Below the pieces are notes generated by a model that saw only the letters and a list, made by a program, of their open reading frames with translations, searched no databases and was not told the DNA's origin. From contig OZ316895.1 in NCBI GenBank assembly GCA_973895155.1, forward strand, positions 2,529,659 to 2,593,658: a stretch of DNA of 64,000 bases. The letters run 5' to 3'. Every line of letters starts with the position of its first letter. The first letter of the stretch is position 1. The translations under genes were made by a program, and so were the position numbers. Origin of the DNA: Marsupella aquatica. Lineage: Eukaryota > Plantae > Marchantiophyta. Of the stretch, positions 5,383 through 51,271 are shown in pieces.

Positions 5383-5589
5383 AACTCCCCCTTGACTCTT
5401 GTCTTGGGGACTGGACTAAATGCTACCATATGGAATCCTCAACGGGAAGTTCTAGACAATCACCAAACCAGGTCTCCCCCTAAAAACCACAAGGGTTAAC
5501 TAGAACTAAACCGTAGACATATAGGAATGAGTAATCCATATACAAATAGTCACACGTTGCTAAAGAACTCTACTTGCATTACAACTGCA

Positions 5590-8270
5590 AAACCTACAAA
5601 GTAGCACGGTGTCTTGAGAAACTCTCCAAAGGAATCACTTTGGTAAAGGCATCAGCAAGATTGAGCTTTCCATCAATCTTGACTAGCTCTAAGTTTTATC
5701 AGACACTGCTTGCCTGATAAAATGGTACCGGATATCAATGTGCTTCACCCTGCTATCCATCACCTGGTTAGCAGCTAAGTGAAGAGCACTCTGACTATCA
5801 CAGTTTAGAGTCATCTTGCCATGCTCTAAACCCATCTCCGCGATCAACTTGTCCAACCAAATTGCTTCCTTTGCTGCTTCTGCTGCTGCAACATACTCTG
5901 CTTCTGTAGTAGACTGAGATATACACTTCTGCAAGGTAGATTTCCAACTGATAGATGTTCCTCCAAGAGTAAATACAAACCCAGTTGTAGACTTCCTTGT
6001 ATCCAGACAGCCTCCATAGTCAAAATCTACATAGCCAACTAACGTTCTACTTGATCCGTTATCAAATAGTAATCCATAGTCCTGTGTTCTCTTCAGATAC
6101 CTGAGAATCCACTTCACAGCTTCCCAATGTACCTTCCCTGGATTTGACATAAATATGCTAACCTTGCCCATCGCTAGGGCCAAGTCAGGCCTAGTACAAG
6201 TCATCAAATACATCAGACTGCCTACTGCCTTCTCATAAGGAATCTTAGCCATCAGACCTTTCTCCACAGCATCCGTAGGAGAGAAAGCCGATGATAACTT
6301 GAAATGTGAAGCTAAATGAATACTCACTGGCTTACAGTTTTCCATGTTGAATCGTGCAAGTACTTTCCTCGCATACTGGCCTTGACTCAAGCACAACTGT
6401 CCAGTATCAGAGTTCCTAAAAATCTCCATCCCTAAGATCCTCTTGGCCTTACCAAGATCCTTCATCCTGAATTCAACACTCATTTTCGCCTTGAGACTGT
6501 CAACCTCAGATTGATCTTTAGCCACAATCAGCATGTCATCCACATAGATCACCAGAATGATGAACCCAAATACATCATTCTTGACTGATTTCGTATACAC
6601 ACAAGGGTCATACACCATCCTTGTAAAACCTTGAGCAAGCATGAAATCATCAAACCGCTTGTTCTATTGTCTGGGAGACTGCTTCAATCCATACAAGGAC
6701 TTGAGCAATCTGCAAACTAAGTTCTCTTGGCTCTTTTTCATAAAGCTTAGTGGCTGTCTCATGAAGATCAACTCTTCCAAGTTGCCATAGAGAAAAGCAG
6801 TAACAACATCCATCTGATCCATCACCAGACCAAAAAACACAACAAGCAGACACAAGATCCAAATTGTGGAATACTTAGCCACCGGTGAAAAGACCTCATT
6901 GTAGTCCACTCCTTTCTCGTGAGTGAACCCCTTGGCAACAAGCCTTGCCTTGTAGATCTTATCTCCACCCTCTAAAGGACTGTCCTTCAACTTGTAAATC
7001 CACTTGCTGTCCACCACTTGCTGACCTCTTGGAAGCTCCACCAGCTCCCATGTCTTGTTGTCACTCAAAGATTGCAACTCCCTCTGCATTGCTGCATTCC
7101 ACTCATGCTTCTGCTCTGAAGCACAAGCCTCACTGTACAAAGAAGGCTCTCCTTCTTCCAAGATCAAAGCCATGTCATCATCATCAGGTGCAATGTCAAT
7201 ATCATCTAACTTAGATGAGTCTGCCCATTGACCATATCTGGTAGGAGCTCTAGTAGATGACTCAGGCTGATCTGCTGCTGCTACTGGCTGAATTTGAGGT
7301 ACCCCAGCAACAATCTTCTCCTCTTGTTCCATCACAGGAACCAGCTCCAAGCCCGGAGCTTCTCCATCTCTCCTGTCATGAATAGCATCATGACTAATCT
7401 CCCTCTCAACCCGGCCCGGGATGGGAGATTTCCCCTTGTCAATATGGGAGTCCTGAGAACTCTCCCCCTCCTTTGATGATCTGGATTCATTAAAGGACAC
7501 ATCTCTACTGACAATTAGTTTACAGGTTACTGGATCCCATAACCTATAACCCTTCACACCTTTCTGATAGCCAAGGAAAATGCACTTCTTCGACTTGGAC
7601 TCCAGCTTGGATCAAAGTTGGGAAGGTGTAAGCACATAAGCATCACATCCAAAACTCCTCAGATGTGAGTAATCTGCTGGACGCCCGTACCTCATTTCAA
7701 ATGGTGTCTTGAATCCAATAGAACTGGATGGAGAAACATTTACCAAATAAGCTGCAGTGTTGACAGCTTCAGCCCAAAACTCATGTGGTAAGCATGATTG
7801 ACTCAACATAGTCCTCGAGCGGTCCAATAGTGTTCGGTTGAGTCTCTCAGAAACACCATTCTGCTGAGGAGTATAACTTGTTGTGAGATGGCGGGTAATC
7901 CCCTGCTCCTTACAATACGTTCCAAATTCACCAGAACTATATTCACCACCGTTATCCGATCATAGATATTTCACCTTATTACCAGTCTGATTCTCAACTT
8001 GGGCTTTCCACTCCTGAAAAGTGGCAAAAACATCAGACTTATTGTGTAGAAAGTATATCCACACATACCTTGAGTAATCATCTATGAACGTGATATAATA
8101 AAACCGTCTAGAATGTGAGGGAGTAGGGGCTGGACCCCACACATCATTATGTACATACTCAAGTACCTCCTTGCTGGTGTGAGCTCCAACTCCGAAGGGT
8201 TTCTTATGCTGCTTCCCAAGCACACAGTGCTCACAAAATTCCAACTTACAAGACTGCAAATTAGAAAAAG
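5590..8270 (-). pseudogene. Copia-A pol (GAG-pre-integrase end, integrase, RT, RNase H), interrupted by stops
   Basis: Motifs CEHCVLGKQ, VHNDVWGP, ITFIDDYSRYVW, WAEAVNTAAYLVN, YKARLVAKGF, SLYGLKQSPRQ, VIYVDDML, STTEAEYVA, CDSQSA and KHIDIRYHF occur in ORFs 7960-8286, 7612-7827, 6664-7557 and 5689-6642, with in-frame stops between them. Confidence 0.95.
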
Positions 8271-9752
8271 TGGTGGAAATCGCCACCCAGCGCCCTCACC
8301 AATCCCAGCACTTGCGCCTAAGTGCCCTTAGTGCTCGAACGCCTCCACGGAATACCTTGAGCAAGCATCCCAGTGCCTCTAGCACTACCTGCGGCCCCTT
8401 CCATATGAAGCCGCACTTGCTCACCTACACGACCGCTACTCAACGGTCCTCACAGTCTGCACAAGCAACCAAGCACCTCGGTAAGTAACCCCTCCGGATC
8501 TAGAACTCGCCAAGTCTAGCCTCCTAACTCAAGCTCAATAGACATTGGTAAATAGGTCAGCGATAGGTCCTCCCGATGCCATAAGCAAGAACCAGAACCC
8601 ACGCCCACTGTCCGTCCAAGACAGCTCCTTCATTGGGCGCAGCTCGGGTTCCCCCTCGTACCTATCCATCATCAACTGACCACCCTGACCTTAAGACATG
8701 CTCATGGCCCAAATAGCGTAGCTTGTCCTAAAGCTTGTCTCAACACGCCGGGACCAGAACGGCCCCGACTCTAACAACCACTCCCGGTTTGCCCCACTGA
8801 TGGTCTAGGGACCGATCGCCCTTGGGACTCAACCTCCATACCTACTTGGCCTTGCCTCCCCAACGCAAGCTCACTTGGGAAGCCGAACGCGGCTTGGCTG
8901 CTGTTCGGCAGGATTTGGCAAGCGGACGAGCTAACACTCACAAACCAGGAGAACCCATGGCACCCCCGGACCCATCTGAGCTTAGGAGGGCGTATCCCTC
9001 ATCAAGAGCTTTCCAACGCACCCAAGAAGTCCTCCAGTGGACTTCCCGTTGGGAAGATATTGCTATTTCTGTTTGGCGGTTTCCTTAGTGTCGCGACCGC
9101 CGCGGCTCACGACTTCGGCTCGGCCTTAGCCCCCAGGGAGACACCACCCCCTCATATATGCTTTTGGAGACTTGCCACCCCCGGACCAGCTTTGGTCCCT
9201 AAACATTTGGCCCCCAACCCAGATCCCATCGCGCATAATGGGCGCGCCACCAATTGGCAACGCCCATAACTTTCTTGATAGGCATCCGTAAACGGAGTGC
9301 CTTAGTCCGTTGTGACTGGACTGACCCAGTGCTCATGCCTAGGCCCTCAGGTCTGATCGCCGCTCGGGGCCCCCGACCGGCCCAACCCGGATCGGGCCAC
9401 AACTTGCGCCCCAAGCGTCCGTTGCCAATGACGTCAACTCCATTGGCCTTGGGCCCAAGAGGAGCTCACTCCCAAGCCCTCAAAACTCAAAGTCCATCCG
9501 ACGGTCCGAACGGCCATCCTTGAGCCCGACCCATTTCCCCTGACCCGACCAGCCATAGGCTAGTCCAAGTCCTTAGTGTGTGTCCCCAGCTTGGCCCCTT
9601 GCCTCGCTAGTGCCACATCTCATTGCCCACAAGTCCCCCCATGCTAAGTCCTCCCCGGATGGCTTATCCGGGTCTGGACCATAAGAGAGCTCGACGTCGA
9701 AGTCAGCGACGCCGGAGCTAAGTGTTAAGGTAGTCGAGTTCTGCGACTTGCA
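8271..9752 (-). repeat. Single surviving 3' LTR of the Gypsy element (~1.48 kb)
   Basis: Starts with TG immediately after the PPT on the minus strand (TGCAAGTCGC) and ends where Copia pol resumes (GCGATTTCCA/CCA), with 8/10 terminal inverted similarity. The left edge is 8271 or 8274. No partner LTR is available to confirm it. Confidence 0.6.
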
Positions 9753-10187
9753 CCCCCCCTTAAAAATGGTCACGTCCGTGTGACCTCAGTAAACGTTCCA
9801 ACACGCCTAGACCACTTTGGGCCTTAAAATTTTTATGAGGTAACAAATGGTTTGCCCATAAGGCTGATGCAAACTAGGTTGGTATGCGCATTCCAAACTT
9901 AGGAAATTCCAACCTATCCCACTTATCCAAGTAGAATGCCAGTCCAAACGGGTAAGCTAACTCCAAACTCGTCGGACCCATTGTCCTCCCCTTGGGGTAC
10001 TCCCCTTTGGTTCGGACCAGCCCGCCCACAGATGTAAGGCAGGGCACCATCAACTTCCACTCGCAAAAAGCAAATCGGCCGCCCAACAACCTCTAGCACC
10101 AACGTGATCTCACTTTATCCTTAAGAGGCTGAGAGGAGTGAAACTAGGATACAACTCACAAAGGTAGCTACAGTTGTCTGTACCAGT

Positions 10188-13009
10188 TCACAACGGCGGT
10201 AGGCCGCTTCGCTTACGATAGCTTCCAAGGATCTCTGAGGCATTACCCAAATTTTCTTCCGGCTCCCAAGTACTCTCGGCCTGGTCGTAGCCAGCCCACT
10301 TCACCAAATACTCTAAGATTTGCCTTCCCAACTTGCGTTTGTAACAGTGGTCCGGAATTGCCTCCACCTCGAACTCCTCCGCATCCTCCACCAGCATGGC
10401 GTCTGGATGCAAGACCTGCTCCCGGTTGGGATCATCGTCTTTGACAAACTTCTTGAGCCGGCTAACATGGTAGCTTTTGCCCACGCCCATTTCCTTGGGT
10501 GTCTCCAACACCACCGAAACCGGATTATCCTTGTGGGCCCATCGTATGATGCGATAGGGCCCCGCATATCTGGGAGCCAGCTTCCTACTTATGTTCGCGT
10601 GGTATTGCTCAGGTCTCAACTGCAACCAGACGCTCTCCCCAATTTCAAAGCTTACCTGGTGTCGATGTTTATCCCCTTGCTCCTTGTACCGACTTTGGGC
10701 AAGGGTCATACCCTTGGTAGCCGCTTCCACAACTAGGCGTCGCTCTCGAATAAAATCGTCCACAGAAGGAACCTTGCTTTCCGTCCGCCAAGCTTCCGGA
10801 TTTATAAACCAGGAGGGCGCCCTTGGCGTCCTCCCTATGGCCAACACAAACGGCGCAAACCCCATCGCCGGATGCTTGGTCGAGTTATACCTAAACTCGG
10901 CCATTGTTAAATGCTTTGCCCAATCCTTCTGATTGGCTGTCACAAGTTGACGCAAGTAGTCCTCCACAATACCATTAACCCGTTCTGTTTGGCCATATGT
11001 CTCATGATGATACGCTGATCCCCTGGTCAGGTCCATTCCGGATAACCGGAACAACACCTTCCAAAAATGGCCCGTGAACTTGGTATCGCGATCGGACAGG
11101 ATATGCAACGGCAATCCCCACTGTCGAAAGACATTGTCAAATACTAGACCGGCAAACCTCTCGGGCCGAAACCATCTTTGTAGTAGGCAAGAAATACGCC
11201 ATCTTGGAAAAATGATCCACGATTGTTAAGATGGAGTTACTGCCGTGGGACTCAGATAATCCAACAATGAAGTCCATGGAGATAGACTCCCATGGAGCCG
11301 CAACTACTAGTAAGGGTTGCAGCAGTCCTCCTTTTGCCCTATAGACCGTTCGGTTCTTTTGGCACGAGTAACAACTTTGCAAGTGTTGAAGGACCGATTG
11401 CTTCATGTCCGGCCAATACACATCTCGCAACATGCTGCGATATGTGGCGGCTTGTCCTCCGTGCCCTCCCCAGGGTGAGTCGTGGTACTTTTGCAGAACC
11501 TCTAACCTTAGAGACTCTGGTATGTACGCACGCCTCTACTTGTATCGCCATAACTGGACATTATGCGTCATATCCAACCCCAACGATACGTGCCTTACCT
11601 TGCCCTGGCTACCCCCATTGCTTTGCCAATCCTTAGCTAACATGTCATCCCCATACGCCGCGGCCAGAACCTTTGGCCACTTGGATTCGAGCATCGTGAT
11701 CCCATTGACACGATGTTGGTCCTTATGTAATAACGCGTCCGCTGCCGTATTTGTCTTCCCTGTAACATGGCGGACTTCAAAATTGAAATCCGCCAAGAAC
11801 ATCTGCCAGGGCTTTTCCTTGGGGTTCAGCCTTGGCTTAGAACTGAAGTACCCGGCCGGCGAGCTATTTGTGTGGATTACCACTTTGGGACCGTTCTTAA
11901 GGTAAATCTCCCACTTCTTCAACGCGTAGATCACAACATACATTTCCCTTTCTGGCGTGATCCAGTGATTTTCCAACTTACATGACTCGAAGGCCACAGG
12001 ACGCCCATCTTGGTGAAGACAGGCGCCATGGCATAATCACTTGCGTCTGTCCAAATCTTGAACGGCTTCCCCATCTCAGGTAACTTTAGAACCGCCGACG
12101 TTATCATTAACCGCTTAAGTTCTAGGAATGCTAACTCACAATCCTGTGTCCACACAAACACTTTGTTTTTCAATGTTAGCGCATTGAGGGGCCTCGCAAT
12201 CCTCGCATAGTCTTTCATGTATCTCCGATAGAACCCCGTAAATCCTAAGAAGGCTCTAACTTGCCTTACATTGGACGGATGCTCCCATTCTTTGATCTCC
12301 TTAAGCTTGTCCTGACTAGGTGTAATCCCTTCCGGGGTAAAGGTATGGCCGAGGAACTGAATCTCGTTCATCGCAAACTCGCACTTGCTAGGTTTAGCAA
12401 AGAGACAAGCCTTACGAAGGTGAGAGAACACTTCTCTGAGCAACAACTCATGCTCCTCCAACGTTTTCGAGTAGATTAGGATGTCGTCAATAAAGACGAC
12501 CACTCCTTGGTCCAACAAGTCATGAAAGATGGTATTATCAATCTATTCATTAAAAGTGAATTATTATTCAATTTATGAACATTTGGGGAACAAAAAGTGT
12601 ACATTTGGCTTTCAAAAAGTGTACAATTGTACAAGAAATAAAGATGTTGGCCATCAGATATACCACCATGTTCATCCTTTGTAAATGAACTAGGATGAGA
12701 CTCCTTATAGTAAAGATAATCTTTGTGCCCTCAAGTTTACAATTGACCATTTAGGTGTAGAGTATTGTACTATAATATACCTTTTGGGGTTAAAAAGTAT
12801 ACATTTAAAGACCAAAAAGTGAACATTTAGAGGCCTGAAAGTGAACAAAATAAAATACACTTTTAATGAATAGGGTGATTATTCATCATCTTCATGAACG
12901 TTGCGGTTGCATTACACAACCCGAACGGCATAACCAAAAACTCCTAGGATCCGAACCTTGTGCGCATCGTGGTCTTATACTTGTCTCCCTTAGCCATGCG
13001 GATTTGGTG
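10188..13009 (-). pseudogene. Gypsy pol: RT (N-truncated), RNase H, integrase, chromodomain; frameshifted
   Basis: ORFs 11931-12518, 11536-11997, 11137-11433 and 10188-11114 are consecutive pol pieces in shifting frames. The RT is split by a MITE. Confidence 0.92.
12537..12879. mobile_element. 343-bp AT-rich MITE with 22-bp TIRs and a 4-bp TSD (TATT)
   Basis: TIRs ATCAATCTATTCATTAAAAGTG and rc ATCACCCTATTCATTAAAAGTG (20/22). Removing the element plus one TATT restores the RT peptide ATFMKMMN-TIFHDLLDQ. Confidence 0.9.
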
Positions 13010-13579
13010 ATCTTGCATCTTGCTCCCTTCCTTGAGCCTGAGGCTCATCAAGAGAGACTTCTTGTGCAGCCGGTCTGACGCATCTTCTCGGTAGTACTTC
13101 TCTCTAAGAGCCTTGAACAGTGATGCGCAATCCGCATAATCATCCAACTGCTTGATGATGTGCGGCTTGAGATATAGCATCACTGTGTTGACAGCAATCA
13201 CCTGCTCTTGTCTCCACTGCTGCACAGAAATCTCCTCCTCTCCATCATACTGCTCTCGTGATGAAAGCAGACGAGCTAAGCCCATGGCCCGTAGAACACC
13301 CTTCACTTGCTTCTCCCATAGCAAGTAATCAGTACGACCATCATACTTCTCCACCTCAAACTTCACTCCTCCGAATCTAGCCATCTCCCTCTTCTTCCCT
13401 ACTACCGATAGTTCTGGTAGTAGTATAGCTTCCTCCACTGCACGCCGCACCGGTGATCGTACCGGTGTTACTTGTTCCTCCTCAAATGGTAGCAGCTCCT
13501 CCTCAGACTCTCTGTCTGACCGTCGCGATCCTGAAGCTCCACCGACGCCAATTCTTCCAGTATCCTCCGAGTCACTCAT
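13010..13579 (-). pseudogene. Copia-A gag, N-terminal part (C-terminally deleted, fused to Gypsy RT)
   Basis: KFEVEKYDGRTDYLLWEKQVKGVL and LLMSLRLKEGSKMQDH are Copia gag (UBN2-type) motifs. The zinc knuckle and protease are absent. Confidence 0.88.
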
Positions 13580-15103
13580 AAGAAACAATCACGAAAAAAC
13601 ATCTTTTTTCGAAACTTTTCATAAAACTCAAAACTCAACACCGCCGCGTAGCCCACGAAGCTAGGAGTCCAATACTGAAAGCCGAAACCAAAATCAAAAT
13701 TCGACAAAAAAGTTATTCAAATTTTGGTCGGAGTGGGTAAAACCTTGGGAAACTCCCCCATTTTGACCACCTCGGAGAATAACTGAATTACCTAGTACAA
13801 CCCATCGTTAGAATTGCGATGTGATCGGTGCGCCGCGTTGCTAACTCCAGTGGCAACGTCCTCACCAAAAAAGAACCAAAAAAGTTATCGTTTGGCAAAC
13901 GGAAACTTTGTCGGACGGCCAAAAAACAGCTCTCTGTTTTTCAGGAATATTCCCGCACAGTCCGACAGGTCTCACAGGGGGTTGTTCCCCCTGTCAGAGC
14001 GGTTAAAATGGAGGGCCGCAGGTCCTGGCACAAGGAGAACAAAGTTGGAAGGGAAAAAGAGTAATAATAGGGTCCTTAAGGGGGTGCAAAGCCCCTTAAA
14101 AGAAATACACCCCGTATGGGGTCGGGGATCCGTAAAGACGTATGGCAGGGCGCATACCCGAGCGACTGCGTATGCAGCCGCATACGCTAAGTGCCGGAGG
14201 GGAGGAACGTCGGGGAACAAAAACAAGGCGAGGGCAGGGCGACCGGCGACAGCCCAATCGCGAGTTAGGTTTAAAGGGGGCCGGGGCGCGGGCGCTAAGG
14301 CAGGGAGTCCCCCTGAAAACGACCGCGATAAAGAGTATGCGGGGATAGGGAAGGCGGGAGGACGTATGTGCGAGAGGAGGGTTCAGAAACGGGATGTGTA
14401 CACTACGTGTGTATACACATGGAAAAAAATAGCCCTAAAGTAACCCAAAAAAATACCGTTTTAAGGGAAAAATGCTGGTTACACACCTTCCGTCCGCCGT
14501 TTTTAGTGAGGAAAGTGAACGCCGCCGACGGGAAAAGTTGCCGAATTGCACCGGCACAGTCTGCAACTCCAGCATAGGAAACAATTTCCGCCGCGTCGTC
14601 TTCACTCCGCGTCAAGTGCCTATCCCGGGCTCAAAATGACCGCCTCACCGCGATCAAACCGTTGAGCCGTGGCACTTTGCGTCTCTTCCACCGAGTCGGA
14701 CGTCACGAAGAGAAACCCAGTTTAGATGAGAACAAGCTCCATAGCTTGTGAAAAAACCTGAACGCCTCCTTCACTCGTCACGACGCACTCGGTAATAACT
14801 CGGCAGCAGCTCAGCTACCAAAATGACCAGCTCGATTCAACCTTCAACGTGAGCTATAATGTGCGATCCCTCCCGCACCGCACGGCTCACACCGTTGAAA
14901 AACGCGAACTCTGGTCTCTCCCCCGAAAAGCCGTCGAACACGAATAAAACCTGAACGATGCAAACTTCGATTCCTCCGCACCACGGATACGGATCAACGA
15001 GTTCTAACCGCGACGAAACTCCAAATGTACCATCGACAGTGAACGCTGGAAAAACCTGTCACGAAAAAACCTGGTCACCTCCCAGGCATGCTTTGATACC
15101 ACT

Positions 15104-15449
15104 TGGTGAGCATAGACGACATTCGTAATGGCAAGCCCACCCGAACCATCCAACGCACAATAGTCGTCACAGAGAAATACGTGGTTCACCTCCACATGAG
15201 GCTACGTCCACGGGAACACACAAGAGCTTTACTGCACTCTAGGTCGACCGACCATACCAAGCATCCACAGCACAAGCTCTCCCTATCTCTCAACTAGCTC
15301 CGTAACAATGAGCCTAAGTTCCACCAGGGTCTGGCATCAGCCCTGGCTATATACACAAAAGCACTACTGCTAACATTAGCTAAGTCCTAACCCGAGTTAG
15401 ACTAACTGTGGTTAGCTCATGAGTCACAAGACTAGAGCAATATCTAACA
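15104..15449 (-). repeat. 5' LTR of Copia-A (346 bp)
   Basis: Direct repeat of 5039-5382, with the PBS on its internal side and the TSD AACTA on its external side. Confidence 0.95.
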
Positions 15450-17079
15450 AACTATGCTCCAAGAATTGCAGCACCCTTCTTGGCATTAGTCTACATCTCC
15501 TTTGAAGCTATTTGTGAGACTGAGCGCAATAGCAAAAAATTATCAGTAGTGGAATTTTCATTATTGGCATTAATATCCAAAGGAGGAACTTCATAATTAA
15601 GTGAGCAGTTTTGGGGGTAGGTTACTACAAAATGGTAAAGGCAGGACAAGTACAATCTTCCACCTGTGGAACCTATCTGACTTAAATAATCCAAGAAGGT
15701 CCATTGATATCACTCCAAAGGCTATCAGAAGGTTCTATACTCTCAGCATCACACCTTTCCATTCGCCCCCTTTTCCACCCTTACCCTTGTTCGTGGAGAG
15801 GGGATGCTGCTTAGGAGGGGCGCAGTTCCAGCACCTCACCCTTTTTGAAAACAAACCTAGTCCTAACCTATTGCCTTACATAAGAGGGGAGGGGCCTTAG
15901 TCCACTCGGAGGCCATGAAAATATTGGATAATGATATGGTGGGAAGCTAATGTTGGAAACACCGCCTCTCACTAATCTGAGACCACGTTTCTATAAGTTT
16001 GCTTTAAAATTCTTGTGCATTTCTGAAATTTTTGGGATAGAAGGCCAAGATGTAGATGAGATACGTACTTTAGTCCCAGAAATTCCCTAAATAACCTCAT
16101 TTTGTTAGTAGATAGAGTACATATAAATAGGATAATCACTAGTCTCTAGAGTGACATGTGACCTTGACCTAAAAAAAACTTAACTTGTCCAGCCAAACAC
16201 CACATATCTGGTTAGGGGAAGAAAACTTCCACCTAAAAACGAGGGGGAGTTAGCAAGAACCTAAAAAATAATAATAAGGTACTTCACATGAAATTCTGAG
16301 TTCAGGAAGATTGGGTTCCTTATCCATTTGTGACAACAAAACGTTTAAAGCTGCTTTTAAGTCTCAAATTTTCCAACACCATTGTCACTACCCCTCGTTT
16401 CTCATATCTTTCCATGTCAATCATGCAGAAAGTTTTAAAGTGCCTGTGTGTGCACCAATTCAATTTCCATTATTCTGATGGCGTCGTTCCTGATAAAAAG
16501 TACTTTTCTCATCATTTGCATAGCATGCAAACTTGGAAGGTGAAGGAGTGGAGCATATATATTGGCTCAATATTAAATTCAATTCAATGATACTTTCACA
16601 AGGACAGATGGGGAATCAGTTTCAACATGCAGAAGGGGAAGACAAGACCATGCAAAGGCTTGAGAAGAGACGTGAAGAAGAATGATGACGAGATCAATCA
16701 TCTCTGCTGCATTGCCCACAAAAGCAACTGACCCACCAGACTCACTTTGCTGAGACTGATTGTGGACGACTTCAAACATTTTCATCAATCTGAAGGCCCT
16801 TTAACAGCCCAACATGGAGGAGCATAATTTTTCGCAGCTGAATGAACACACATCAAGACCCTAGTCCAGTCTTTCAAATGTTTTTCCTGACTTTCAAATC
16901 GCCACATTTTTATTGTGTTCCCGATCCAATACATTCTGTAAGTAGGGGGATGACCCTTCGTCTAGAGATAGTAAAGAGCAGGAGAGGTTGAGAGAAGCAC
17001 AAAACAAGACTGGTCGATGGACAGAAATCGGATCTCTTAATCTCAGCCGCCTGTCTGAGCTATCTCAAAACGAAGTGTT

Positions 17080-21966: not shown

Positions 21967-22550
21967 GATGGAGAAAATAAGTGACAACAAAAGTGTATAG
22001 TGTAAATCCGTTTCAAGAGGGCACTGTCTTAGATAAACCCTGGCTGCCGGAGGTCCTTTTCCAGTGACGACGTCCCTGGGAAAGGGATTTATGGTGCTTG
22101 GAGCCTGACCTAGATTTCTCTTATTTTTGGTACGATTGGTAGCTGAAAACCTGCCCAAGGCATTCATTCACTCATGTTTGATGGAGAAAATGTGGGAAGA
22201 CAAAAGTGTGTAGTATGGCCGTCTCAAGAGGGCACTGTCTTGGATCGTCCTTGTCAAAGGGATTTATGGTGCTTGGAGCTTGACTTAGATTCTCTTAAAT
22301 TTGGTACGATTGGTAGCAGAAAAACCTGCCCCCAAGGCATTCATTCACTCATGCTCGATGGATGGAGAAAATGTGTGAAGACAAAAGTGTATAGTATGGC
22401 CGTCTCAAGAGGCCACTATCTTGGATAAAGACTGAGGGTAGGGCTGCACGAGGTCCTTTTCCCGGGACATTATACTCATGAAAGGGCTTTAGGGTGCTTG
22501 GAGCTGACTTAGATTTCTCTTATTTTTGGAATGTCTGGTAGTTGAAAATG
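21967..22550. repeat. Three diverged tandem copies of a ~180-210 bp unit
   Basis: Anchors GATGGAGAAAAT..ACAAAAGTGT, CAAGAGG.CACT.TCTT, GGTGCTTGGAGC and TAGATT..CTCTT recur in units starting ~21967, ~22180 and ~22361. Confidence 0.9.
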
Positions 22551-22852
22551 TATTCACACTTATACCCAGGACGTCCAGATGTATTCCCAGATCTTCGCCC
22601 ACAGGATGCTCACATAGATTCCCAGATCCCCCAGCTCAGAAGAAATGTTTACTATCAACCCAGATAACTCCACTGCAAAGTACAATCCGGAAAACCCAGG
22701 GAGGGCTTTGAAATTTATTTCACAAACTACTCTCTTGGTCGGTGGATTGCCAGAAGGAGTTTTGCTTTCTTTGGACGTGTGGACTCTAGAATGGAGTAGA
22801 TTGTTCTGCACGGTTGACTGATAAGTACCGAGTACACTACTTCATAACCAGA

Positions 22853-23154
22853 TGATAAGATTTAGAGAAAGAACTTAATACAAGTCACCCGTAGGCCCCT
22901 GGATAAATACTAGAGGGGAAGGGAGGGTGAGCCGCCCAAGAGCCACACAGGGCTAATCCAATAGATAAGCAGAAACGACACCTAGAAGCTACAAGTTAAA
23001 GAACAAGGGCCCCATGCCGATAGTTATGGGATTACCAAGGGATAAGCAGGATCCTGATAATGTACAGCTAATGTAATCGCCACACAATAGTAAACAGCTA
23101 AGATCAAGTTGCCACAGGGAGTGGCATAAAGTCTGGTTGACCATATATTCAACA
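22853..23154 (-). repeat. 3' LTR of Copia-B (302 bp)
   Basis: Direct repeat of 28346-28642, roughly 94-95% identical by eye, with small indels. Confidence 0.95.
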
Positions 23155-23218
23155 CCCTCTCTTCAACCAGATACCATAAGTCAGAGTGGAAAGGAAAGCG
23201 CAGTCCAGCTGGAGGAGA

Positions 23219-23710
23219 ATGGCGGAGTCCAATGAATCGTTGTGGAATGCAGTAGGAGAGTGCTGTTGGGCAAACTGGACAGTACTGTGATTGGCAACTA
23301 TTCGAATATGTCGATTGGTAAGACCAGCAGCCGGCAGTGAAGGGGCAGCGGTGGAGCGGGCGCCGATACATGGGGAGCATGAAGAGCAGGTGGTCGAAGC
23401 AGCAGATCGTGAGGAGCAAGCACAAGGGCTAGTGGCGAGAATGGTAATGGAGAGGGAAATAGTGACACAGGAGCGACCGACGGTAAGGGCAAGAGGTTTG
23501 CCACGTTATTATGCAATTGCTATCGGGAGGAAGCCAGGGATTTATGTGTCATGGGAAGCAGCAAGCAGGCAGGTAACAGGATTTCGAAACAATCGACATG
23601 AGATGTTCAAGTTACGTGCGGAAGTGGAGCAGTACCTAAGGAAGGAGTTAAATGTTGGGGCAATGTCAACTGAAAACAGAGAGCGACTGAGACAAGTAGT
23701 AACATGGTAG
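23219..23710 (+). pseudogene. Antisense ORF in Copia-B encoding an RNase H1 N-terminal hybrid-binding / caulimovirus viroplasmin (Cauli_VI-like) domain; one internal TGA
   Basis: RYYAIAIGRKPGIYVSWEAASRQVTGFRNNRHEMFKLRAEVEQYL matches the family pattern YYAVxxGRxPGIYxxWxExxxQVxGFxxxxYKxFxTxxEAxxYL. The ATG at 23219 is in frame with the listed ORF 23291-23710, separated only by TGA at 23288-23290. Confidence 0.8.
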
Positions 23711-23743
23711 TAAAAAGGTAGAACAGTGAGACGACCATGTAGG

Positions 23744-26700
23744 CTAGTCATTACCCGGGATGAGGGATAATGATCTTAGCCCAATAGAACGTCGATGTTT
23801 CTCAAATAGTTGGCGGCCAACAGCTTTGGTGAAGATGTCGGCATGTTGTTCATCAGAAGCAATGAATCTGAGTGCAATTTCTTTTTCGAGAATACGTTCA
23901 CGTACAAAATGATGCTTGGCTTCAATATGTTTGGTTCGTGCATGGAAGATTGGGTTGAGTGCCAAATTTGATTGAGCCTTGGTTGTCGCAATTGAGATGA
24001 ATGTCTTGTAGAGTTGGAGTAGAAGCATGTGCGAGGTCGGAGTTGATGTAATGATTCTGGCAACCAAGTTCCACAGACTTTGTAGGTGGAGGAAGAACGT
24101 TAAGTTCAAGCAGCATGCGTCTGAGATAAACAACTTCCTTGGTAGCTTCACTGAGTGCCTTGTACTCAGCTTTGGTGGTGCTATCGGATACAGTAGACTG
24201 GCGTTTACTGGACCAAGAAACTGCTCCATCAGCAAGATTGAAGACATAGCCGCCAGTGGATCTTCTAGTCTCGATGCAACCCAAGTAATCAGCATCGGTA
24301 TAACCAGAAAGGGTAATCTGAGATCCCAGCTTGAAGAAAATGCCATAGTCAACAGTTTTCTTAATGTAGCGGAGGATGTGTTTCATTGCATCCATGTGTT
24401 GTTGTTGGGGCTAGGACATAAATCTCGCCACCATACCGACAGCATACGAGAGATCAGGTCGAGTATTAGTAAGGAACAACAACTTTCCTACAATTTGACG
24501 ATACTCAATAATGTCAACAACTCCAGTACCAGTATTAGACTGAGTCACAAACCCATCAGGTAGTGGGGTGTGCTCAATTCAACAGTCTGCCATGTGTAGA
24601 TCCTCAAGAATAGGTTGAGCATAGTCATGTTGATGCATTAGGAGACCCTGATCAGATCATATAAACTGGACGCCAAGATACTTGGTGATCGTACCAAGGT
24701 CCTTCATCTCATATTTTTGCTGAAGTTGCTGCTTAACTTCAGACATTTTTGTTGGACTATTGCCTGTGACAATCAGATCATCAACATAGAGAAGGAGTAG
24801 AACAATTGTTGGGCCATCATGTAGGAAATAAAGATTAGGGTCCGCTTGACTCCGAATCCAACCCTGGGACCTTAAATATAAATCTATTTCATGATACCAA
24901 GCACGTGGAGATTGTTTTAAACCGTATAGAGACTTTCCGAGCTTACAAACCAAATGTTCACTACCCTTGACCTCAAAGCCTTGCGGTTGAAGCATGTAAA
25001 TAACCTCTTCAAGATTTCCATTGAGGGAAAGCAGTCACAACGTCCATATGTGAGATGGGCCAACCAAGAGCTGCAGCAATAGCTATGATGGTCCGAAGAG
25101 TTGACCAGCGCACAACAGGTGCAAAGGTTTCGTTGTAGTCGATACCGTATTGTTGCTCAAAGCCACGAGCAACCAATCTTGCCTTTAATCGAGTCCTTAC
25201 TGCAGAAGTTCCATTGTTAATGGGTTTAGCTTTGTAAACCCATTTAGTTGAGAGAGCGTGCAGGCCAGGAGGGAGTTCAGCTAGTTCCCATGTTTCCTTT
25301 TTGATTAAGGAATCAAATTCTTCCACCATAGCTGCATTCAAGCCTGGATCAGAATAAGCCTTGTCAAAGGTAAGTGAATCAGTTACTGGATCTCCTGTTT
25401 CAACCACAAACAAATCAACATTGTCAGGTAGATATAGTTCATGATCGTGAAATTTACTTGGAAGTTTCCCACGAGTTGATCTGATCGAGGCCCTTGTAGC
25501 TCGTCTAGTAGGAGGTGGTGACTCATGAGCAACTGGAATTAAATCCAATCTTTCTTCTGCATTATCAACATCGGGTTGAATTGGATCTTGAGCTCGGTCT
25601 TCAGGAGCAGCATCGTAAGTAGCATCATCAGCAGCATTACCATTATTGTGAGCAACATCATCAGTAGCATGTAAAACCGGGTCTTGAGCTCGTGCTTGAT
25701 CCCTCTCTGGCTCGTGTGGAGCCACTGACGAGTCAAGGACAGGTAGTAGATGATCAAAGAAGGAAGGATCAGGTGCGGGAGAGTTAAAGGAGCCAGGGGA
25801 ATCCTCTATACAGGCAACATTGGGGCTAATAAGAATTTTTCGACTAACAGGGTCAAAGCAGCGATAGCAATTAGTCTGAGAATCATAGCCAACAAAGACT
25901 GTTGGAATAGCTTTGGCTTGCAATTTTGTAGGAAATTTGTCAGGAATATGAACAAAGGCAGTGCAGCCAAGAACTCGTAGATGAGAAAGATCGGGCTTGA
26001 CACCGGTTAGTGCTTGAAACGGTGTAGAGAGATGGAGTGCACGAGTGGGGCAACGGTTGAGAACATAGGCGGCTGCACTGAGTGATTCCATCTAGAGAAA
26101 GCTGGGGAATTTTGAATCAATAAACGTGGAGCGAGCTGCTTCTAGCAAGGTATGGTTTTTACGTTCAGCAACACCATTTTGGTGTGGAGTGCTAGGGGCA
26201 GTGAGTTGACGCCTAATGCCATGAGTTTGGCAATAAGTACTAAATTCTTGGGAGAGATATTCACCGCCTCGATTTGTCCGAAGAGCAAAAATTTTGGTAG
26301 AGAACTGTTTCTCAACCATCATTCTAAACTCTTTGAATTTAGTGAAAGCTTCACTTTTGTGAGTAAGAAAATATACCCAAGTAAACCGGGAATAATCATC
26401 AATGAACGTAAGTAAATACTTGTGACTAGATGAGGTGTTCACCTGTCCACATAAATCAGAGTGGATGAGTTGAAATGCGGCATTAGAGCAAGTACGAGAT
26501 TTCTTGGGAGCTCGTTTGCTGTGATGCTTAGCCACTATACAGGAGGAACATTTTCTTTTGCATAGAGGAAGAGTTGGAATGCCGGTTGCTAGATTGTGCT
26601 TGGTCATGTGATATGCTGACTGAAAATTGATGTGGCTTAGACGTCTATGCCAGAGATCAACAAGATCAGTGGACACTTGAGTGATCTCGAGTGCATGTAA

Positions 26701-28199
26701 AACATCCGGTGAAGCAGCAACCAAGGGGGCAACCGGTTGGCGCTGTTGAGTTGCGGTCAAGTGTTGGAGATGCCGAGAGAACCGAGAAATCTGCTCGCCA
26801 GGTAAAGTAGTTGATAGTCGATAAAGTCCATTTCGTGGATTTCGAGAAGCTTTGAGAGCCACAAGCTGTGGGTTGTCTCGATCAAAGACGTCACACTCTT
26901 TGGAGTCAAAAAGAACAAGATAACCAGAGTCGGTTAGCTTTCCAACAGACATGAGATTCTTGTGTACACCTGGCACGTAAAGAACATTGCTCATTGCTTT
27001 ATTATCAACCTTAACTGTGCCCTTTCCCAAAATCGGGAGTTTAGAGCCAGCGGCTGTAGTGACAGCAGGACCATACGAGGTGCTAGGGACAAACTCAGAT
27101 AATCCTTCTTGAGCTCCAGCAATGTGATTGCTAGCGCCAGAGTCTAGGTACCATTTTGGTCCTAGTTCGGTAAGATTGGCAGTAATTTCTCTTGAGGTCG
27201 GGTCAGAGAAATCTACATGGTCATGAACGTTGGCGTCAACTGTCTCGGTGAGGTGGGCCTGTGGTTTGAAACGACGTAGGCCAGATGCACGGAGCTGGAG
27301 CTGAGCAATCTGATCATCCACTTTCTTCAGGTCACAGTCTACTTCCCAATGGCCTGGCTTGTTGCAGAGTTGCATGCTCCGACCCGGCCCCTGCCACGAT
27401 CAGCTCTCCGGTCAGTTTGGTGGTGGAAATGTGGGCGCTGGTTCTGAGCACGAAAGCCACGACCCCTTCCATATGAAGGATTACGGAAGCGAGTCATGAC
27501 CAAGGCTTGTTCTTGGGTATCATCCTGATACCCACGGCGCCAGTATTCTTCGGCCTGGAGTCTTTCCGTCAGGTTGGCATAAGTTGGTTGAGGATGCCTA
27601 GAAAGATCAGAGCCAAACACAGAAATAAAGGGACCCCAACTCTTTGGAAGTCCGCGAAGTACAACATACATCAGCCTGGTCTTATCAACAGGTGCATTCA
27701 TGATCGAAAGTTGATTGGTGAGGTCCTCAATCTCTTTTAAGAAATTTTCGACGTTAGTGCCTTCAAGCATACGGACAGACTGCAACTTGTTTTTGATTAG
27801 CAGCCTTCGTTGGATCAGATCGCCTCCAAACCGTTGTTTGAGATGATTCCATCCCGCAACTGGATCATTTGAGTAGGTCAGAATCGTGGGCAGGAACTGG
27901 TCCTGCACAGTCGCCATCAAGATTGACTTTGCCTTTACCTTGAGTTGGCGGATCTGCTGAGGGGTTCGTTGAGGATGTTGGACCCGGGGAACGTTGTCGC
28001 CTTCTTGATCAGCATCGTCCTTCTCAACGTCACCTGCAGGAGAGATCAAGTTATTAGCATCGGTATCTTCTCCTGCAAAGTTGAGCTCATCCCAGACTTC
28101 ATCGCGTTCTAGTAAAGTCTGCACACGGGCACTCCAACTAATGTAATTCTTGGACCCTTCGAGCTTAGCATTGTCATTGAACAAGCGGGCTAACTCCAT
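23744..28199 (-). pseudogene. Copia-B gag-pol polyprotein (gag, CCHC knuckle, protease, integrase, RT, RNase H) with frameshifts and a stop
   Basis: KLEGSKNYISW; C/QLCNKPGHWEVDC (knuckle broken by a 1-nt deletion); WYLDSGASNHI; LWHRRLSHIN; IHSDLCG; PHQNGVAERKN; KARLVARGF; SLYGLKQSPRAW; LLYVDDL; GYTDAD; CDNQG; ADIFTKA. Confidence 0.95.
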
Positions 28200-28345
28200 C
28201 GCTATTTACTCTAGCTACTGAGGGAGAGCTTCTGGCTGATATCCACGGCAGACAGACTCTTTAGCTAGCTAGACGCTTAGAGACTTCGCTTCTAAGCGGA
28301 CTTCTCCTCTAACTCTCTAGGACCATATCTGGAGCTCTGATTCCA

Positions 28346-28642
28346 TGATAAGATTTAGAGATAGAACTTAATACAAATCACCTGTAAGCCCCTGGATAAA
28401 TACTAGAGGGGAAGGGAGGGTGAGCCGCCCAAGAGCCACAAAAGGCTAATCCAATAGATAAGCAGAAACGACACCTAGAAGCTACAAGTTAACAAAGGGC
28501 CCCATGCGGATAGTTATGGGATTACCAAGGGATAAGCAGGATCCTGATGATCCTGATAATGTAATCGCCACACGATAGTAAACAGCTAAGATCAAGTTGC
28601 CACAGGGAGTGGCGTAAAGTCTGGTTGACCATATATTCAACA
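28346..28642 (-). repeat. 5' LTR of Copia-B (297 bp)
   Basis: Direct repeat of 22853-23154, abutting the PBS on one side and the TSD on the other. Confidence 0.95.
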
Positions 28643-28871
28643 CCAGAATGTAACCTGTTAGAGAATTTCGTACAGATGTGAACACGCCCCAACTAGAGAT
28701 GAGACTTTTACACCTCAGTGAACCGAATATGAGAAAACGTGTTTGCTCATGTTGTAGCTCTGTAGATTTGAGATACAGTTATAACCTCAACGACGGAAAT
28801 GTGATGCGCGAGAATAGAATTGAGTGCATCCTTTACCTACAGTATGTATGAATCGTGAAGACAGCTCGGTG

Positions 28872-30250: not shown

Positions 30251-31290
30251 CTACTTAAAGAAGCCGTGTTGTTTGCGAGAATCGGGATGTGCGGCAGCGT
30301 CCTCTTTGCGCTCGGTGGACACCTGATGGTGCTCGTAAACGGCATAGCCTCCTGCGCCTAGAGCTGCTACTCCTGCAACTGACTCTTCAATGCGGTGTCG
30401 TTGTGCATTCTGAGGGTCCACCTTCACCTGGTGCTGCTCATACTGTAACGGAACAATCAAACAATGTCAAAATCCAGGAAAATGCTCACCTAAGGCTCAC
30501 CCATGGAGGCACAAAAGAAATTCGTGCCTGCCAGTAGATCATGAGCGATAATTTGAAGGGACAAGATCGGGAAAAGACAGGACAAAATTGAAAATGCTGA
30601 TAATTGACAACAATGCCGCGTCTCGATTAGTGCCTGAGCGTGTCCATCTAGGCTACTGAGCAAGTGCATCTTTGAAGCAACCAGCAGAGAAACTGAGGTT
30701 GCATTTTATTCACTTGTCAACAATCGAGGCAGAGTGGAAAAGGCTCTTACCAAGGCAAAGGCGCCGGACGCGAGAGCTCCAACCTCTGCAAGATGTTCGT
30801 TTCTCTTCTGAGATTTCTCTAGAGCGGCGCGTTTCTCTGCTTCCGCTCTGCTGTCTTGAACGAGTGTCGTCGTCGACGAAGCATACTGAGCCGGATACCC
30901 AGCCGGACCTCCGGGTTGTGCGTAGCCGCCTTGTTGTGGATAGCCAGGTTGTGCGTAGCCGCCTTGTTGTGGATAGCCAGGTTGTGCGTAACCGCCTTGT
31001 TGTGGATAGCCAGGTTGTGCGTAGCCACCGCCGTAAGGCGGTTGAGATCCGTAAGGCGGTTGAGCTCCGTAAGACCCAGCATACCCCGCTGGTGGACCTC
31101 CAGACTGCTCATAGCCGGCTTGGTAGCCAGCTTCGTAGCCGCCGCCGTGAGACGGAGGAGATCCATAAGACCCCCGGTTATATTCCTGGTCGTGATGATG
31201 GTGCTTCTCCTCCTTGTGATGGTGCTTCTCCTCCTTGTAGTGGTGTTTCTCCTCGTCATGCTTGTGGTGCTTATCATGGTGGTCCGACAT
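30251..31290 (-). CDS. ASR: ASR (abscisic acid-stress-ripening) / ABA_WDS domain protein with His-rich N-terminus and G/Y/P/Q-rich repeats
   Basis: Exons 31290-30751 and 30442-30251 (GT-AG, phase 0). [16 protein letters not shown]|[39 protein letters not shown] matches the ABA/WDS consensus, with the intron at the position typical for ASR genes. Confidence 0.88.
30913..31031 (-). repeat. Coding 33-bp tandem repeat ([11 protein letters not shown] x ~3.5)
   Basis: Near-identical GGTTGTGCGTAGCCGCCTTGTTGTGGATAGCCA units. Confidence 0.95.
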
Positions 31291-32486
31291 CCTGTCAAAT
31301 TTGAATACTCTTTCTCCCTCCTTGGCCTCGACTCTAGCTCTCAATTACAGCAGTATCAGAAACTCCCTTCAGGTCGATCGATCACACAAAGTAATCTGCA
31401 GCTCTCGTAACCTTATAACGATCCAGCAAGCCACCGGTGATCTCAATCAACAGGCCTCACAATCTACGGAGCATGCACTACCTGCTGCACTTTAAGCTTG
31501 GACTAACGCTCGTCTCTGTCAACGTGCAAGCATTTCACAGCTGGTGATATTCGGGGGTCAAGTGACACAAACACCGGCCATCTGGAGGATTTGTAGCTTT
31601 AATTCACCGTGTGATGGAACTTTCGAGCCTGCAACCTTCACACATCAACCAGTTGAGGAGATTTACTTGCACAGACAATGTGCGCTAGGTGCCGTCGGAA
31701 ACTCGTACCCGGTCAAGTCACACAAAGAGAGGACTCGTCCAGATAATGCCGGCCGGGCCCCAATGCAGCCTCTGCACTTTGAATTTTCCCGTCCGTCGAG
31801 CTCTACCTCCCCGCACCGGCCTCACGGGCTCACGGCCCGGTGTACTTCGGAATTCGATTGGACGGATGATGCCAACATCATTATTATCTTCAGCAGCTGA
31901 CACAATCATACACCGACGCCGAAATGGCGAAATCCAAATCTCACGCAGAGCAGTCACCGCGTGCAGATCCAAATAAAATATCCCTTTCCATTTCCGGATC
32001 CCCGTGTCGTGCGTCCGGATTGTCGCCTGCACATGTGAAGCACAGATTTGCAATCAGAGTCGGTCTAGGCACATCTGCTTCTAGTCTTCGACAATGTTTT
32101 CAGTCACCACCTTTACTGGGTTTAGCTATTTCGGAAACCACTACCTGGGAAGGCACCGTGTCGATTTTGAAGGTAAGCGAGGGGAAAGGACACATTCGTC
32201 TGTCCTGATTCGTCATTCCAGGACGTGTTTCGGGAATGGGTTACCATCTTGCTCGGTGGGCTTCAGCGCCACCGACTTCGCATCGAGGAGCTGAACATTG
32301 GGCGGAGATTGCGCATTGGCTGGACGAGCATGTATTGTTGTTGTATTCAGCACGACTCACACACGCTCTCCCTTAGTGCTGAAGTTATGAGTGTACTGTG
32401 GAGTTGGATCGGGTTCCATCACACCCTCAGCCCCACTAGCCTAGGGCCCTCGAAACATTCCTCAGAAACTGTACGTGAGACAGTAA

Positions 32487-39068: not shown

Positions 39069-42000
39069 TCACCACCTCTTCAAATGTTGCAGCAACAAAA
39101 CAGCAGCAGAATCTTTTGCTTTCTTGACGCTCGGCATTGGCTCTCCTACACGTTCTTCAGTCCATCCACTTTCCGTCGTATGAACACGTACAGAATATGT
39201 GAACCGTTTTGCGTGTGCAGGACCACCTTCAGTAACACACCTGGAAAATGGGAGACCCATACTATTAGTTAACCCAAAGGCAGCATCAAGAGCATGCAAG
39301 GTCTTGTCAGATACATCGTGCGTCAAGTGACTACGCATCAATTCAAATTTAGGAAATACAGCTCACGACAAACCGGTTTCCTCTAACTCGACCAGCCATA
39401 ACAATATGTGCATCAGAAGTATTAGGCAATTACTTGTATTGTGGCATTGGCCATTGTCGTTTCAAGCATATGTCATTGAGGGTTTGCCGAGTGAATGGAG
39501 TCGTCTTCGTCAATGCCTTTCCAACCACCTCCCCATTCTCCAGAGCAGCTGCTTTGGCTGCAGCCTCCTTACTTGACTCTTTCTCTTTCAATATAACCAG
39601 GGCATTTCGGGCAGCCAATTTCTGAGCCATTTTTTTCTGCGGATTCTGTGCAGAACCAATTTGCACACCATCCACATAGACTTCAACAAAAGCAAGATTC
39701 CCCTGCCGAGAAGATTTGTATTCGAGCCCCTCTGCAAGCTGCTGGCAGCGTTCTTGTAGCTCCCGCACAGGATGCATTGGTAGCGTCTCTGGAGTCACCA
39801 TGGGTTGGAGCAAAGGCTCAAAAATCTGCACCAATAGTTATATTCAGAAAGAATTACAGCTCAAGATTAGAACATGAAACAGACTGTTATCGGTCATCTG
39901 ATGACAGTACCAGAACTAATCACTTTGATTCTGATATTGGTGTACAGGGCTATGCCTCACGATACTAATGTGGACACGACTGCTTTACTGAGACATTATC
40001 AAGCAATTAATTGGTCAAAACCATGGTCAAAACTAGATCGAGTGATTCCCAGAGTAACCGTCAAGAAGATATGAAAGAACTGACCTTCCAAACTTGATCT
40101 GTGTTCAGAGCTGTGTCCAAAAATGCGGCACCCGCTATAGACTCGAGAATATCTCCAAGTACCTTAGGAGCCTTGAAATCTCCGAGCCCGAAGGAGTTCA
40201 CACCAGGCTTATCTAACTCCGTCTGAATGTCCTTGACAAAATCATGGATCTGCAGATGACAAAACCACCTTAGGAATCACATGGCTCGTACTGACCGGAA
40301 AAATAACACTTGCAGACAAAGACCGATACATAACATCTGCATTTGTTGAAAATCTTGACAAGATCAGTAGAAAACAAAGACGACCATTTCAAGAATCAAT
40401 AGATAAAGGCATACCTGTGTTTCAAGAGCACTTGAGCCATGACGCAGATGTAAATGAAACTTATGTTTTACTGCCACTCGAGCAAAGTTTTCATTATTTA
40501 CAGCAGCTGCCCTCAGATCAGTCAAGCGACCCGGCGGCAAATCTGTGTAGCTAAAAAATAAGTGGCGGGTGATTAGGTGGTCAAGGACGGCATCACCCAC
40601 AAATTCCAGGCGCTGATAACAAGGGACACCTGAAGAGGGACGTGAAGCATGAGTAATGGCCTCAACTAACAAACTACGCTCGTTGAACTTGTGTCCAATA
40701 GCCCCCTCCACACCATCAAAATCAATACTCCTCAACACACTCTCAGGTACTGTGGAGCCTACTCTGGCCTGAAGACCATCAGCAGGATCAAACTCCACAG
40801 GAATACCAATCCAATTCATCAAATGTGTGGCAGCCTTTTGTCCACCTTCCACATAATAAACTCCAATGAGAGCCTCTACGACATCCGCCAGAGTCTTGCT
40901 AGAGAGAACCCTGTAAGCACTTGAGTCTCCTTCAATTTCTCCATCTTCCATATAATCATCTTCTATAATCTCGTCAACAACTGTTTGTACAGGTTTGCCA
41001 TTTGCATCCTTCCCGTTAGAATCCATCCCGTTAGCATCCTTCCCGTTAGCATCCTTCCCGCTGGCATTTTTCCCGTTAGCATCCTTCCCATTTGCATCCT
41101 CCTTGACAGGGTCGTCTACTTTAGTTTCTGTCGCTTCAGCTTCATCTGGATCCTTAGTTTCTTCATCAAACACAGGCGGAACCCCTGGGGCTGCCCATCT
41201 CGATGGAGCAAAGCGATCTGCTTGTATGTAGCTTTGCAAGCCCTTCTCCAATGCATATTGGTAAAGCACCGAGTTGCTGACAGTTTGTTGTCTCATGCGA
41301 GTCAGTTGGCCCTCATGTTTGCTGGGATATGTAAGAAAAAGCCTCCTACTCACAACCCATTTCAAATACGCATCTCCCAGTAATTCAGCGCGTTCATAGC
41401 AGAACGTTTCTTGACATGATGCTGCAGTCAAAGCCTCCAACACCTGCAAATGAACAAATATGAGAAACAAAGATTCAGTCACATCTTGAGAATAGACTCT
41501 TATTGATCCAGGTAGAAGTACACAAGATTGGACAGACCTCCAGTCACGACGCCCATGGTTTAGAATCTTATGTCAACAAGATGTATTCGACAAGAAACGA
41601 CACAAAAAATTTACTAAGAATGTTCAAGCTTTCATAAAGCCAGACTTCTAGACAACGAAGCCTTCCATCAATCCTAAAATCTGAAACTTGGCACAGAATT
41701 AGCGTTATCGAACCTTAGAGGCAGGAATTGTGTATGCAATTTGATGCTTCAGCTGCACTGCCAACAGCATACTCTCCACCCGCCTCATCACAGATGGAAG
41801 GCGCTGTGCGCCTCGGACTAACGGCCCTGGAAGTGGATGCACCAAGCACAGCTCTGGGGGAAGCATAACATAGTATGTCTTGTCCAGTGGCTCTTCTGAA
41901 TTCCCTGCAGTACCTGAGGAAACATGACTTGTGTCAAAAATTGCAGCCGAAGTCTTAAGAACCACATAATAACAACGAATGTCAAGCTAGGCAGGTAGAC

Positions 42001-51056: not shown

Positions 51057-51271
51057 ACACGCACCTGTTCGAAGATATAGCGGTGGAGCACGAGAAACAA
51101 GGTCATGAACCCCCCTTAATTGTGGGTCGAGAGCGGCAGCTTCTATGATCACAACTCTTCGTTCACGTTCACGAAGGCTGCCACTACACAATTCACAGAA
51201 TTTAAACTCGGTGACTGCTCTGAGATCACATGAGGAACCTCTGTGCTAAAGAGGCATGTCTTTGAAGAAGA

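Follow-up and report, generated by a model that had tools for sequence, protein, structure and literature searches.

Structure of the Copia element

The stretch of DNA analysed here, 64 kb in length and referred to as the window, contains a 5.8-kb Ty1/copia retrotransposon on the minus strand (22853-28642). Both long terminal repeats (LTRs) have TG..CA ends, and the element is flanked by a 5-bp target-site duplication, CCAGA, at 22848-22852 on the left and 28643-28647 on the right. Sequence comparison placed a 3' LTR of 302 nt at 22853-23154 and a 5' LTR of 297 nt at 28346-28642, differing by 15 substitutions per 297 aligned bases (K2P 0.052). A polypurine tract (PPT) adjoins the 3' LTR at 23155-23166, and a primer-binding site (PBS) with one mismatch, which we take to be of the tRNA-Met 3'-end type, lies at 28334-28345. 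The ORF list and Pfam identified gag (PF14223 and PF13961) in a stop-to-stop frame at 27339-28205 and pol (protease, integrase, RT and RNase H region), split into several frames, at 23744-27399; LTRs, PPT, PBS, gag and pol are all on the minus strand. Over these broken frames Pfam recovered the Copia domain order gag-PR-IN-RT with an RVT_2-type RT. The C-terminal RNase H pieces of pol gave no significant Pfam match and resembled those of a second Copia in the window. The gag-pol is broken and this copy is dead. Its size, 5-bp target-site duplication and tRNA-Met PBS are compatible with several REXdb plant Copia lineages.

The second Copia lies at 5039-15453, with LTRs of ~350 nt that are 95.7% identical, and a chromodomain-bearing Gypsy element is nested in it at ~10191-12542. 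A degenerate tandem repeat with units of ~175-225 nt (21967-22548) adjoins the left side of the 5.8-kb element. On the other side, an ABA/WDS-like gene with His-rich and other repeats lies at 30709-31344 on the minus strand; its Pfam match was weak and below the cut-off. Pieces of a Dicer-like gene, with helicase, PAZ and two RNase III domains, are spread over 40367-51245 on the minus strand, and the clusters nearest to them were mostly from Streptophyta, which points to a land plant as the probable host. These pieces begin ~12 kb from the element, a proximity that is probably due to chance.

An antisense frame between pol and the 3' LTR

An antisense frame of 163 codons and a stop, interrupted in this copy, runs along the plus strand at 23219-23710, between pol and the 3' LTR. 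It occupies 492 of the 577 nt (85%) between the PPT and the pol stop. The minus-strand pol frame ends at 23744, so that 33 nt separate the convergent stops, and the end of the 3' LTR at 23154 is 64 nt ahead of the antisense ATG. This ATG is preceded by A at -3 and followed by G at +4, and no other ATG occurs upstream of it within 23072-23218. A TATA-like site facing the antisense gene lies ~70 nt before the ATG (23143-23149, plus strand) and may act as its promoter. Translation revealed one internal stop, a TGA at codon 24 (23288-23290). The frame within a Copia element bounded by target-site duplications, the spacing of the stops, the distance from ATG to LTR and the position of the TGA were all as given in the preliminary description, on the evidence of translation and coordinates.

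The translation has four main parts, all on the plus strand. Codons 1-38 (23219-23332) form a conserved N-terminal segment, predicted from hydropathy and the structural model to be an amphipathic helix. It is followed by an acidic linker at codons 39-84 (23333-23470), which is fast-evolving judged by identity and predicted by the model to be disordered. A PF01693 domain, the RNase H1 N-terminal or hybrid-binding domain (HBD), lies at 23504-23635, and a conserved, predicted C-terminal helix (ELN..MSTENRERL..TW) at 23636-23707 closes the protein. The N-terminus had been described as partly hydrophobic; it is a predicted amphipathic helix. We rejected a transmembrane N-terminus since the best 19-residue hydropathy was only 1.0-1.1.

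PF01693 matched over its full length (profile positions 1-44 of 44), scoring 48 bits where the cut-off is 21 (E=1.5e-12), and the YYAIAIGRKPGIYVSWEAASRQVTGF motif is present in the translation. The domain is net basic, with nine K+R and four D+E residues. The frame ends 24 codons past PF01693 and contains no catalytic RNase H domain, and it is therefore not an RNase H1 enzyme. PF01693 was not found by Pfam in the pol pieces of the element. By contrast with the domain match, the length of the frame carries no weight as coding evidence, since, when the interval was resampled 2000 times with a Markov model, 419 resamples had a stop-free run of at least 139 codons in some frame. It is thus the domain match and not the open-frame length that is significant against chance. 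RNA structure as a cause of DNA conservation was also unsupported, since the genomic strand at the ORF showed no unusual fold (z=-0.5).

Relatives of the antisense frame and its family copies

Protein searches returned the relatives P0001, P0002 and P0003 (three of 75 candidates), P0006 and P0007 (among 13 matches of 3484 candidates) and P0163, all from Logan assemblies. Cluster look-ups added two relatives whose frames are uninterrupted: P0004, 62% identical and 161 aa long, and P0164, 49% identical and 162 aa long. Each shares its starting Met and its tail with the window frame, P0004 ending at the frame's final residue and P0164 four residues further. PF01693 is the only Pfam domain of P0004 (53.4 bits against a cut-off of 21). 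Both proteins presumably come from within Copia elements.

Copies of the family were checked by aligning contigs of four sequencing runs, from two studies, to the stretch with the frame. The ORF was present and conserved across family copies in all four runs and both studies. Contigs with another base in the codon-24 stop accounted for 191.5 of 265.9, 101.6 of 125.8, 54 of 148.4 and 45.7 of 45.7 depth units in the respective runs; the premature stop is thus not family-wide. Contigs differing from the window span the junction of the ORF end and the pol end, and at least six diverged variants of the antisense gene were found.

The order of LTR end, PPT region and ORF is kept in one diverged contig, which is ~84% identical and was seen in four of four runs. 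This contig differs from the window by 64 substitutions, with no gap in 391 aligned ORF bases compared with 14 gap letters upstream, and a swap of 88 for 82 nt in the linker keeps the frame. Similarity to the window ends at the ORF stop codon, and the ~900 nt beyond showed no similarity to pol at 80% among the matches listed. Two of the differences in the listed subset would make the TATA-like site canonical, which is a hint at most. Close copies carry frameshifting indels, either a 4-nt insertion or deletions of 1 and 20 nt. In a related copy, deletions of 1 nt and 20 nt lie 23 nt apart in the N-terminal helix (23235-23278), removing a net 21 nt and regaining the frame. Together, relatives P0001-P0004 and P0164 and the diverged contigs in all four runs support the earlier proposal that the frame is common to a family and not a one-off.

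Within the window, tblastn gave a single match, to the antisense frame itself, and none in the second Copia, where no antisense frame precedes the 3' LTR (longest plus-strand run 55 codons). Metagenome scans with P0004 and alignment A2 produced 477 and 48 pattern matches, none confirmed, and scans of viral contigs, using A2, P0169 and a piece of the RT, produced 16, 3 and 5 matches, again with none confirmed. Six records of a phage collection matched the domain alone. Longer fused forms were sought among 7989 scored candidates, and the only two matches were both fungal RNase H proteins, which speaks weakly against a pol fusion.

A separate group, the P0169 cluster (12 members from JGI/IMG, on contigs of up to 14,963 nt), shares with P0009 the same build as the antisense gene: a hydrophobic W-rich N-terminal segment, a charged linker and a C-terminal PF01693 domain. 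Their N-termini are unrelated, and P0169 has a canonical basic site in its domain. Its occurrence on many contigs suggests a repeat, and the cluster could represent another element family that carries a gene of this kind.

Apparent selection on the antisense protein

Identity between the window frame and P0004 was 23/37 in the N-terminal helix, 7/44 in the linker, 8/11 in the next segment, 42/44 in the domain and 20/24 in the tail. For P0164 the same segments gave 18/37, 7/39, 5/11, 27/44 and 18/24. The C-terminal half was far more conserved than the linker in both comparisons (p=5e-16 for P0004 and 4e-6 for P0164). All six pairs among four members shared this pattern, with p values of 2e-5 to 7e-3 for N-terminus versus linker and 5e-16 to 4e-6 for C-terminal half versus linker. 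The domain and linker differ six-fold in identity, a contrast that could arise partly from segment replacement.

A codon test was applied to 29 of the 64 differences of the diverged contig, drawn from 40 of 71 variant rows and leaving out the row of the internal stop. In its C-terminal half, 10 of 16 listed differences were third-position synonymous (p=0.016), five changed a residue and one reads as a stop. The N-terminal half showed no third-position bias (5 of 13 listed differences) and neither did 10 differences from close copies. Given the listed stop change, the diverged copy may also be dead.

Judged by the segment contrasts and the synonymous bias in the C-terminal half, the antisense gene looks to be under selection as a protein. 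Intact relatives, patterned conservation, a layout shared by other copies and a stop that is not family-wide together point to a likely selected accessory gene rather than a one-off capture. We conclude that the antisense frame is probably a selected, element-borne gene.

Predicted fold and binding surface

A model of P0004 built on a 51-sequence alignment contained a helix at residues 2-34, a low-confidence linker, a three-strand, two-helix domain and a tail helix, with pLDDT 92-96 across the domain. The modelled domain matched the human HBD (3BSU) with an rmsd of 0.6 Å, a target TM of 0.92 and E=1.5e-3, where the alignment behind the model included many other PF01693 domains. P0004 is thus predicted to have the three-strand, two-helix fold of the HBD. 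A model from four sequences had a pLDDT of 45.6 and a mis-folded domain. The best viral fold matches of the P0004 model were caulimovirus P6/TAV proteins, via the shared small domain only (query TM ~0.3, large rmsd). With that restricted match and a length of 161-162 aa, the antisense proteins do not belong to the P6/TAV family. Full-length PF01693, alignment to human RNase H1 and the fold match to 3BSU all uphold the initial identification of an HBD/P6-like domain.

Y29 and F58 of the RNase H1 HBD have roles in hybrid binding. When the antisense frame was aligned to human RNase H1, the equivalents of W43, R57 and Y29 were kept, and human F58-K59-K60 was replaced by H-E-M in the window frame. 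The K59/K60 equivalents are E/M in four of five distinct members and K/M in P0164, and F58 is replaced by H in all five. A complete basic K59/K60 pair is absent from all five. Lack of a basic residue at both the K59 and K60 sites is uncommon elsewhere, occurring in just 34 of the 373 outside domains that came from 155 search matches, and M at the K60 site occurred in one of 374 domains. According to the accessible text of PMC10639055, W43A and KK59/60AA both compromise hybrid binding by the human HBD. The canonical hybrid binding implied by the preliminary description is accordingly weakened. The model points to a domain that keeps its fold with a remodelled, still net basic surface.

A domain tree was computed from 362 distinct domains over 46 columns, after dropping duplicates and domains with at least six gaps; P0003, P0006, P0007 and P0163 were outside the test of the family clade. 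It recovered a family clade of four with support 0.957. A phylogeny against other HBDs had been suggested, and the tree provides the family clade but no resolved sister group among its domains, which contained no P6.

Possible roles of the antisense protein

The reading we tentatively put first is that the antisense protein, of ~161 residues with an HBD fold and no nuclease, is a helper that grips the RNA:DNA hybrids of the element in replication; we consider it a serious possibility rather than a probable one. Transcription would start at the inner edge of the 3' LTR. The N-terminal helix would dock the protein on a partner, be it Gag, RT or itself, with the acidic linker as a flexible tether. 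The domain would then provide in trans the substrate grip that is found in cellular RNase H1 and missing from the pol of the element. Its substrates would be reverse-transcription intermediates, or possibly R-loops at the element. Full-length PF01693, the kept W43, R57 and Y29 equivalents, the net basic domain and the lack of PF01693 in pol are consistent with such a helper. Against it would count the loss of the basic K59/K60 pair in four of five members, as well as the listed stop change in the diverged contig and the frameshifts in close copies. The helper reading also leaves unexplained how a separately translated protein would enter the particle.

Alternatively, the gene may be a selected accessory gene whose domain has turned into a protein-binding module, as in caulimovirus P6, tuning translation or host signalling for the element. 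The basic pair is lost throughout the family whilst the domain is otherwise 95% conserved, and P6/TAV proteins were the top viral fold matches. The P6 dsR domain binds TOR, eL18 and eL13, as described in the available part of PMC5902531. However, the P6 match is confined to the shared small domain, the surface is net basic with the W43 and R57 equivalents kept, and the K59 equivalent is kept in P0164. Nor did the domain tree, which held no P6, resolve a sister group that would link the two. We regard this conversion as rather unlikely.

This Copia family might instead have captured once, and carried along passively, a gene selected elsewhere, whether from the host or from another mobile element, in which case the conservation pattern would be that of the donor locus. 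P0004 and P0164 come from short contigs of 4204 and 1630 nt, stand-alone PF01693 proteins are common in eukaryotes, and decay is seen in the window copy as well as in close copies. A Pleurotus Helitron bears PF01693 as a captured gene (PMC4289320, accessible portion). Yet the ~84% identical contig links the LTR end, PPT region and ORF, with the frame kept and a synonymous bias, indicating that selection acted while the gene was LTR-linked. The at least six diverged variants are as expected for a transposon family, and host genes picked up by transduction usually lie in the sense direction (PMC7264820, in the text accessible). We regard passive carriage as unlikely.

The preliminary description put forward an anti-silencing factor. 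In this reading the protein would bind dsRNA made from the element, duplexes that arise by convergent transcription among them, and protect it from Dicer. With 33 nt between them, the two convergent genes would yield overlapping transcripts, an idea also found in the accessible text of PMC7264820, and the P6 motif binds hybrids and dsRNA in vitro (PMC5902531, same limitation to the accessible text). On the other hand, according to the available sections of PMC5902531 and PMC3836500, the PF01693-matching domain of P6 binds TOR and ribosomal proteins; the former describes it as dispensable for RNAi suppression, and the latter reports that a miniTAV deletion retained suppressor activity. The basic K59/K60 pair is also changed here, and a single small domain per chain binds weakly unless oligomerised, the signal of 1xHBD-GFP being diffuse (accessible part of PMC10639055). 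The anti-silencing claim is weakened by these results and we consider it quite unlikely.

A chance open frame or neutral relic would fit the frame length, reached in 419 of 2000 resamples, and the stop in the window copy, but it is very improbable and largely refuted by the PF01693 match (E=1.5e-12), intact relatives of equal length and the six-fold identity contrast between domain and linker.

Beside the hybrid-gripping helper stands a broader evolutionary view. Plant reverse-transcribing elements may repeatedly have recruited the RNase H1 HBD as a separate accessory protein, in caulimovirus P6 and in this Copia family, and the Copia protein would then act in trans in the manner of P6, its binding surface remodelled. 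We offer this view as conceivable and somewhat speculative. If it is true, this antisense gene of an LTR retrotransposon has a biochemical activity that is structurally defined and can be tested directly.

Comparison with known systems

Antisense ORFs between pol and the 3' LTR (aORF-3R) are described, in the accessible text of PMC7264820 and PMC11963269, for maize Grande gene23, rice RIRE2, Silene Retand, PvRetro13 and Botrytis Boty. The gene reported here resembles them in position, orientation, presence across family copies, a function without assignment and a proposed accessory role. The Retand and Ogre cases belong to Gypsy lineages, whose regions of 3-6 kb encode TRP28, plant-mobile or SMC domains, whereas here a compact 5.8-kb Copia carries PF01693. 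The same 2020 review, in its available sections, stated that the functions of antisense extra genes were unknown, with no clear database similarity beyond SMC and transposase-28 domains (PMC7264820). The antisense accessory gene of this Copia family, which is real and likely to be selected, has a domain with a solved structure, standard assays and intact natural versions, making this old question of function testable.

The REXdb survey counted extra ORFs from 250 codons up, as its accessible text specifies (PMC6317226), and a 161-codon gene would therefore escape it. In the part of its tables available, 3'R ORFs in 1% of SIRE are the only clearly placed Copia value, the Bianca and Ikeros rows having shifted columns, and pfam01693 is not among the domains found in at least five elements. 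No Copia antisense gene with PF01693 was found in the full-text literature covered, a scope that excludes subscription papers and Repbase, and the accessible portions of PMC10377300 and 10.1101/572842 contain no Copia-borne PF01693 domain. Within the partial texts of that literature, then, a Copia antisense ORF with an HBD is uncatalogued, as had been supposed. Our results extend antisense extra genes to Copia and to a length under the 250 codons that the main survey required, and more such genes may have been missed.

The HBD of RNase H1 (PF01693; human 3BSU, yeast 1QHK) shares with the antisense protein its sequence profile, a predicted fold (0.6 Å) and the W43, R57 and Y29 equivalents. RNase H1 however has a catalytic RNase H domain and F58-K59-K60, whilst the antisense protein has no nuclease, H-E-M in most members, and an N-terminal and a C-terminal helix of its own. 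The dsR domain of caulimovirus P6/TAV belongs to the same Pfam domain, is likewise non-catalytic, and also has its own gene in a plant element that replicates by reverse transcription (PMC5902531, from the text accessible). P6 differs in being a multi-domain protein of ~520 aa (available part of PMC3836500) against 161-162 aa here; similarity is limited to ~45 residues, and, in the sections accessible, its silencing suppression maps outside the PF01693-matching domain. In the Pleurotus Helitron, capE is a cargo gene with PF01693 (accessible text of PMC4289320) and thus also a non-catalytic form of the domain on a mobile element, although one of another class. Together with P6 and this fungal transposon cargo, the Copia antisense gene hints that mobile elements reuse the PF01693 domain as a helper.
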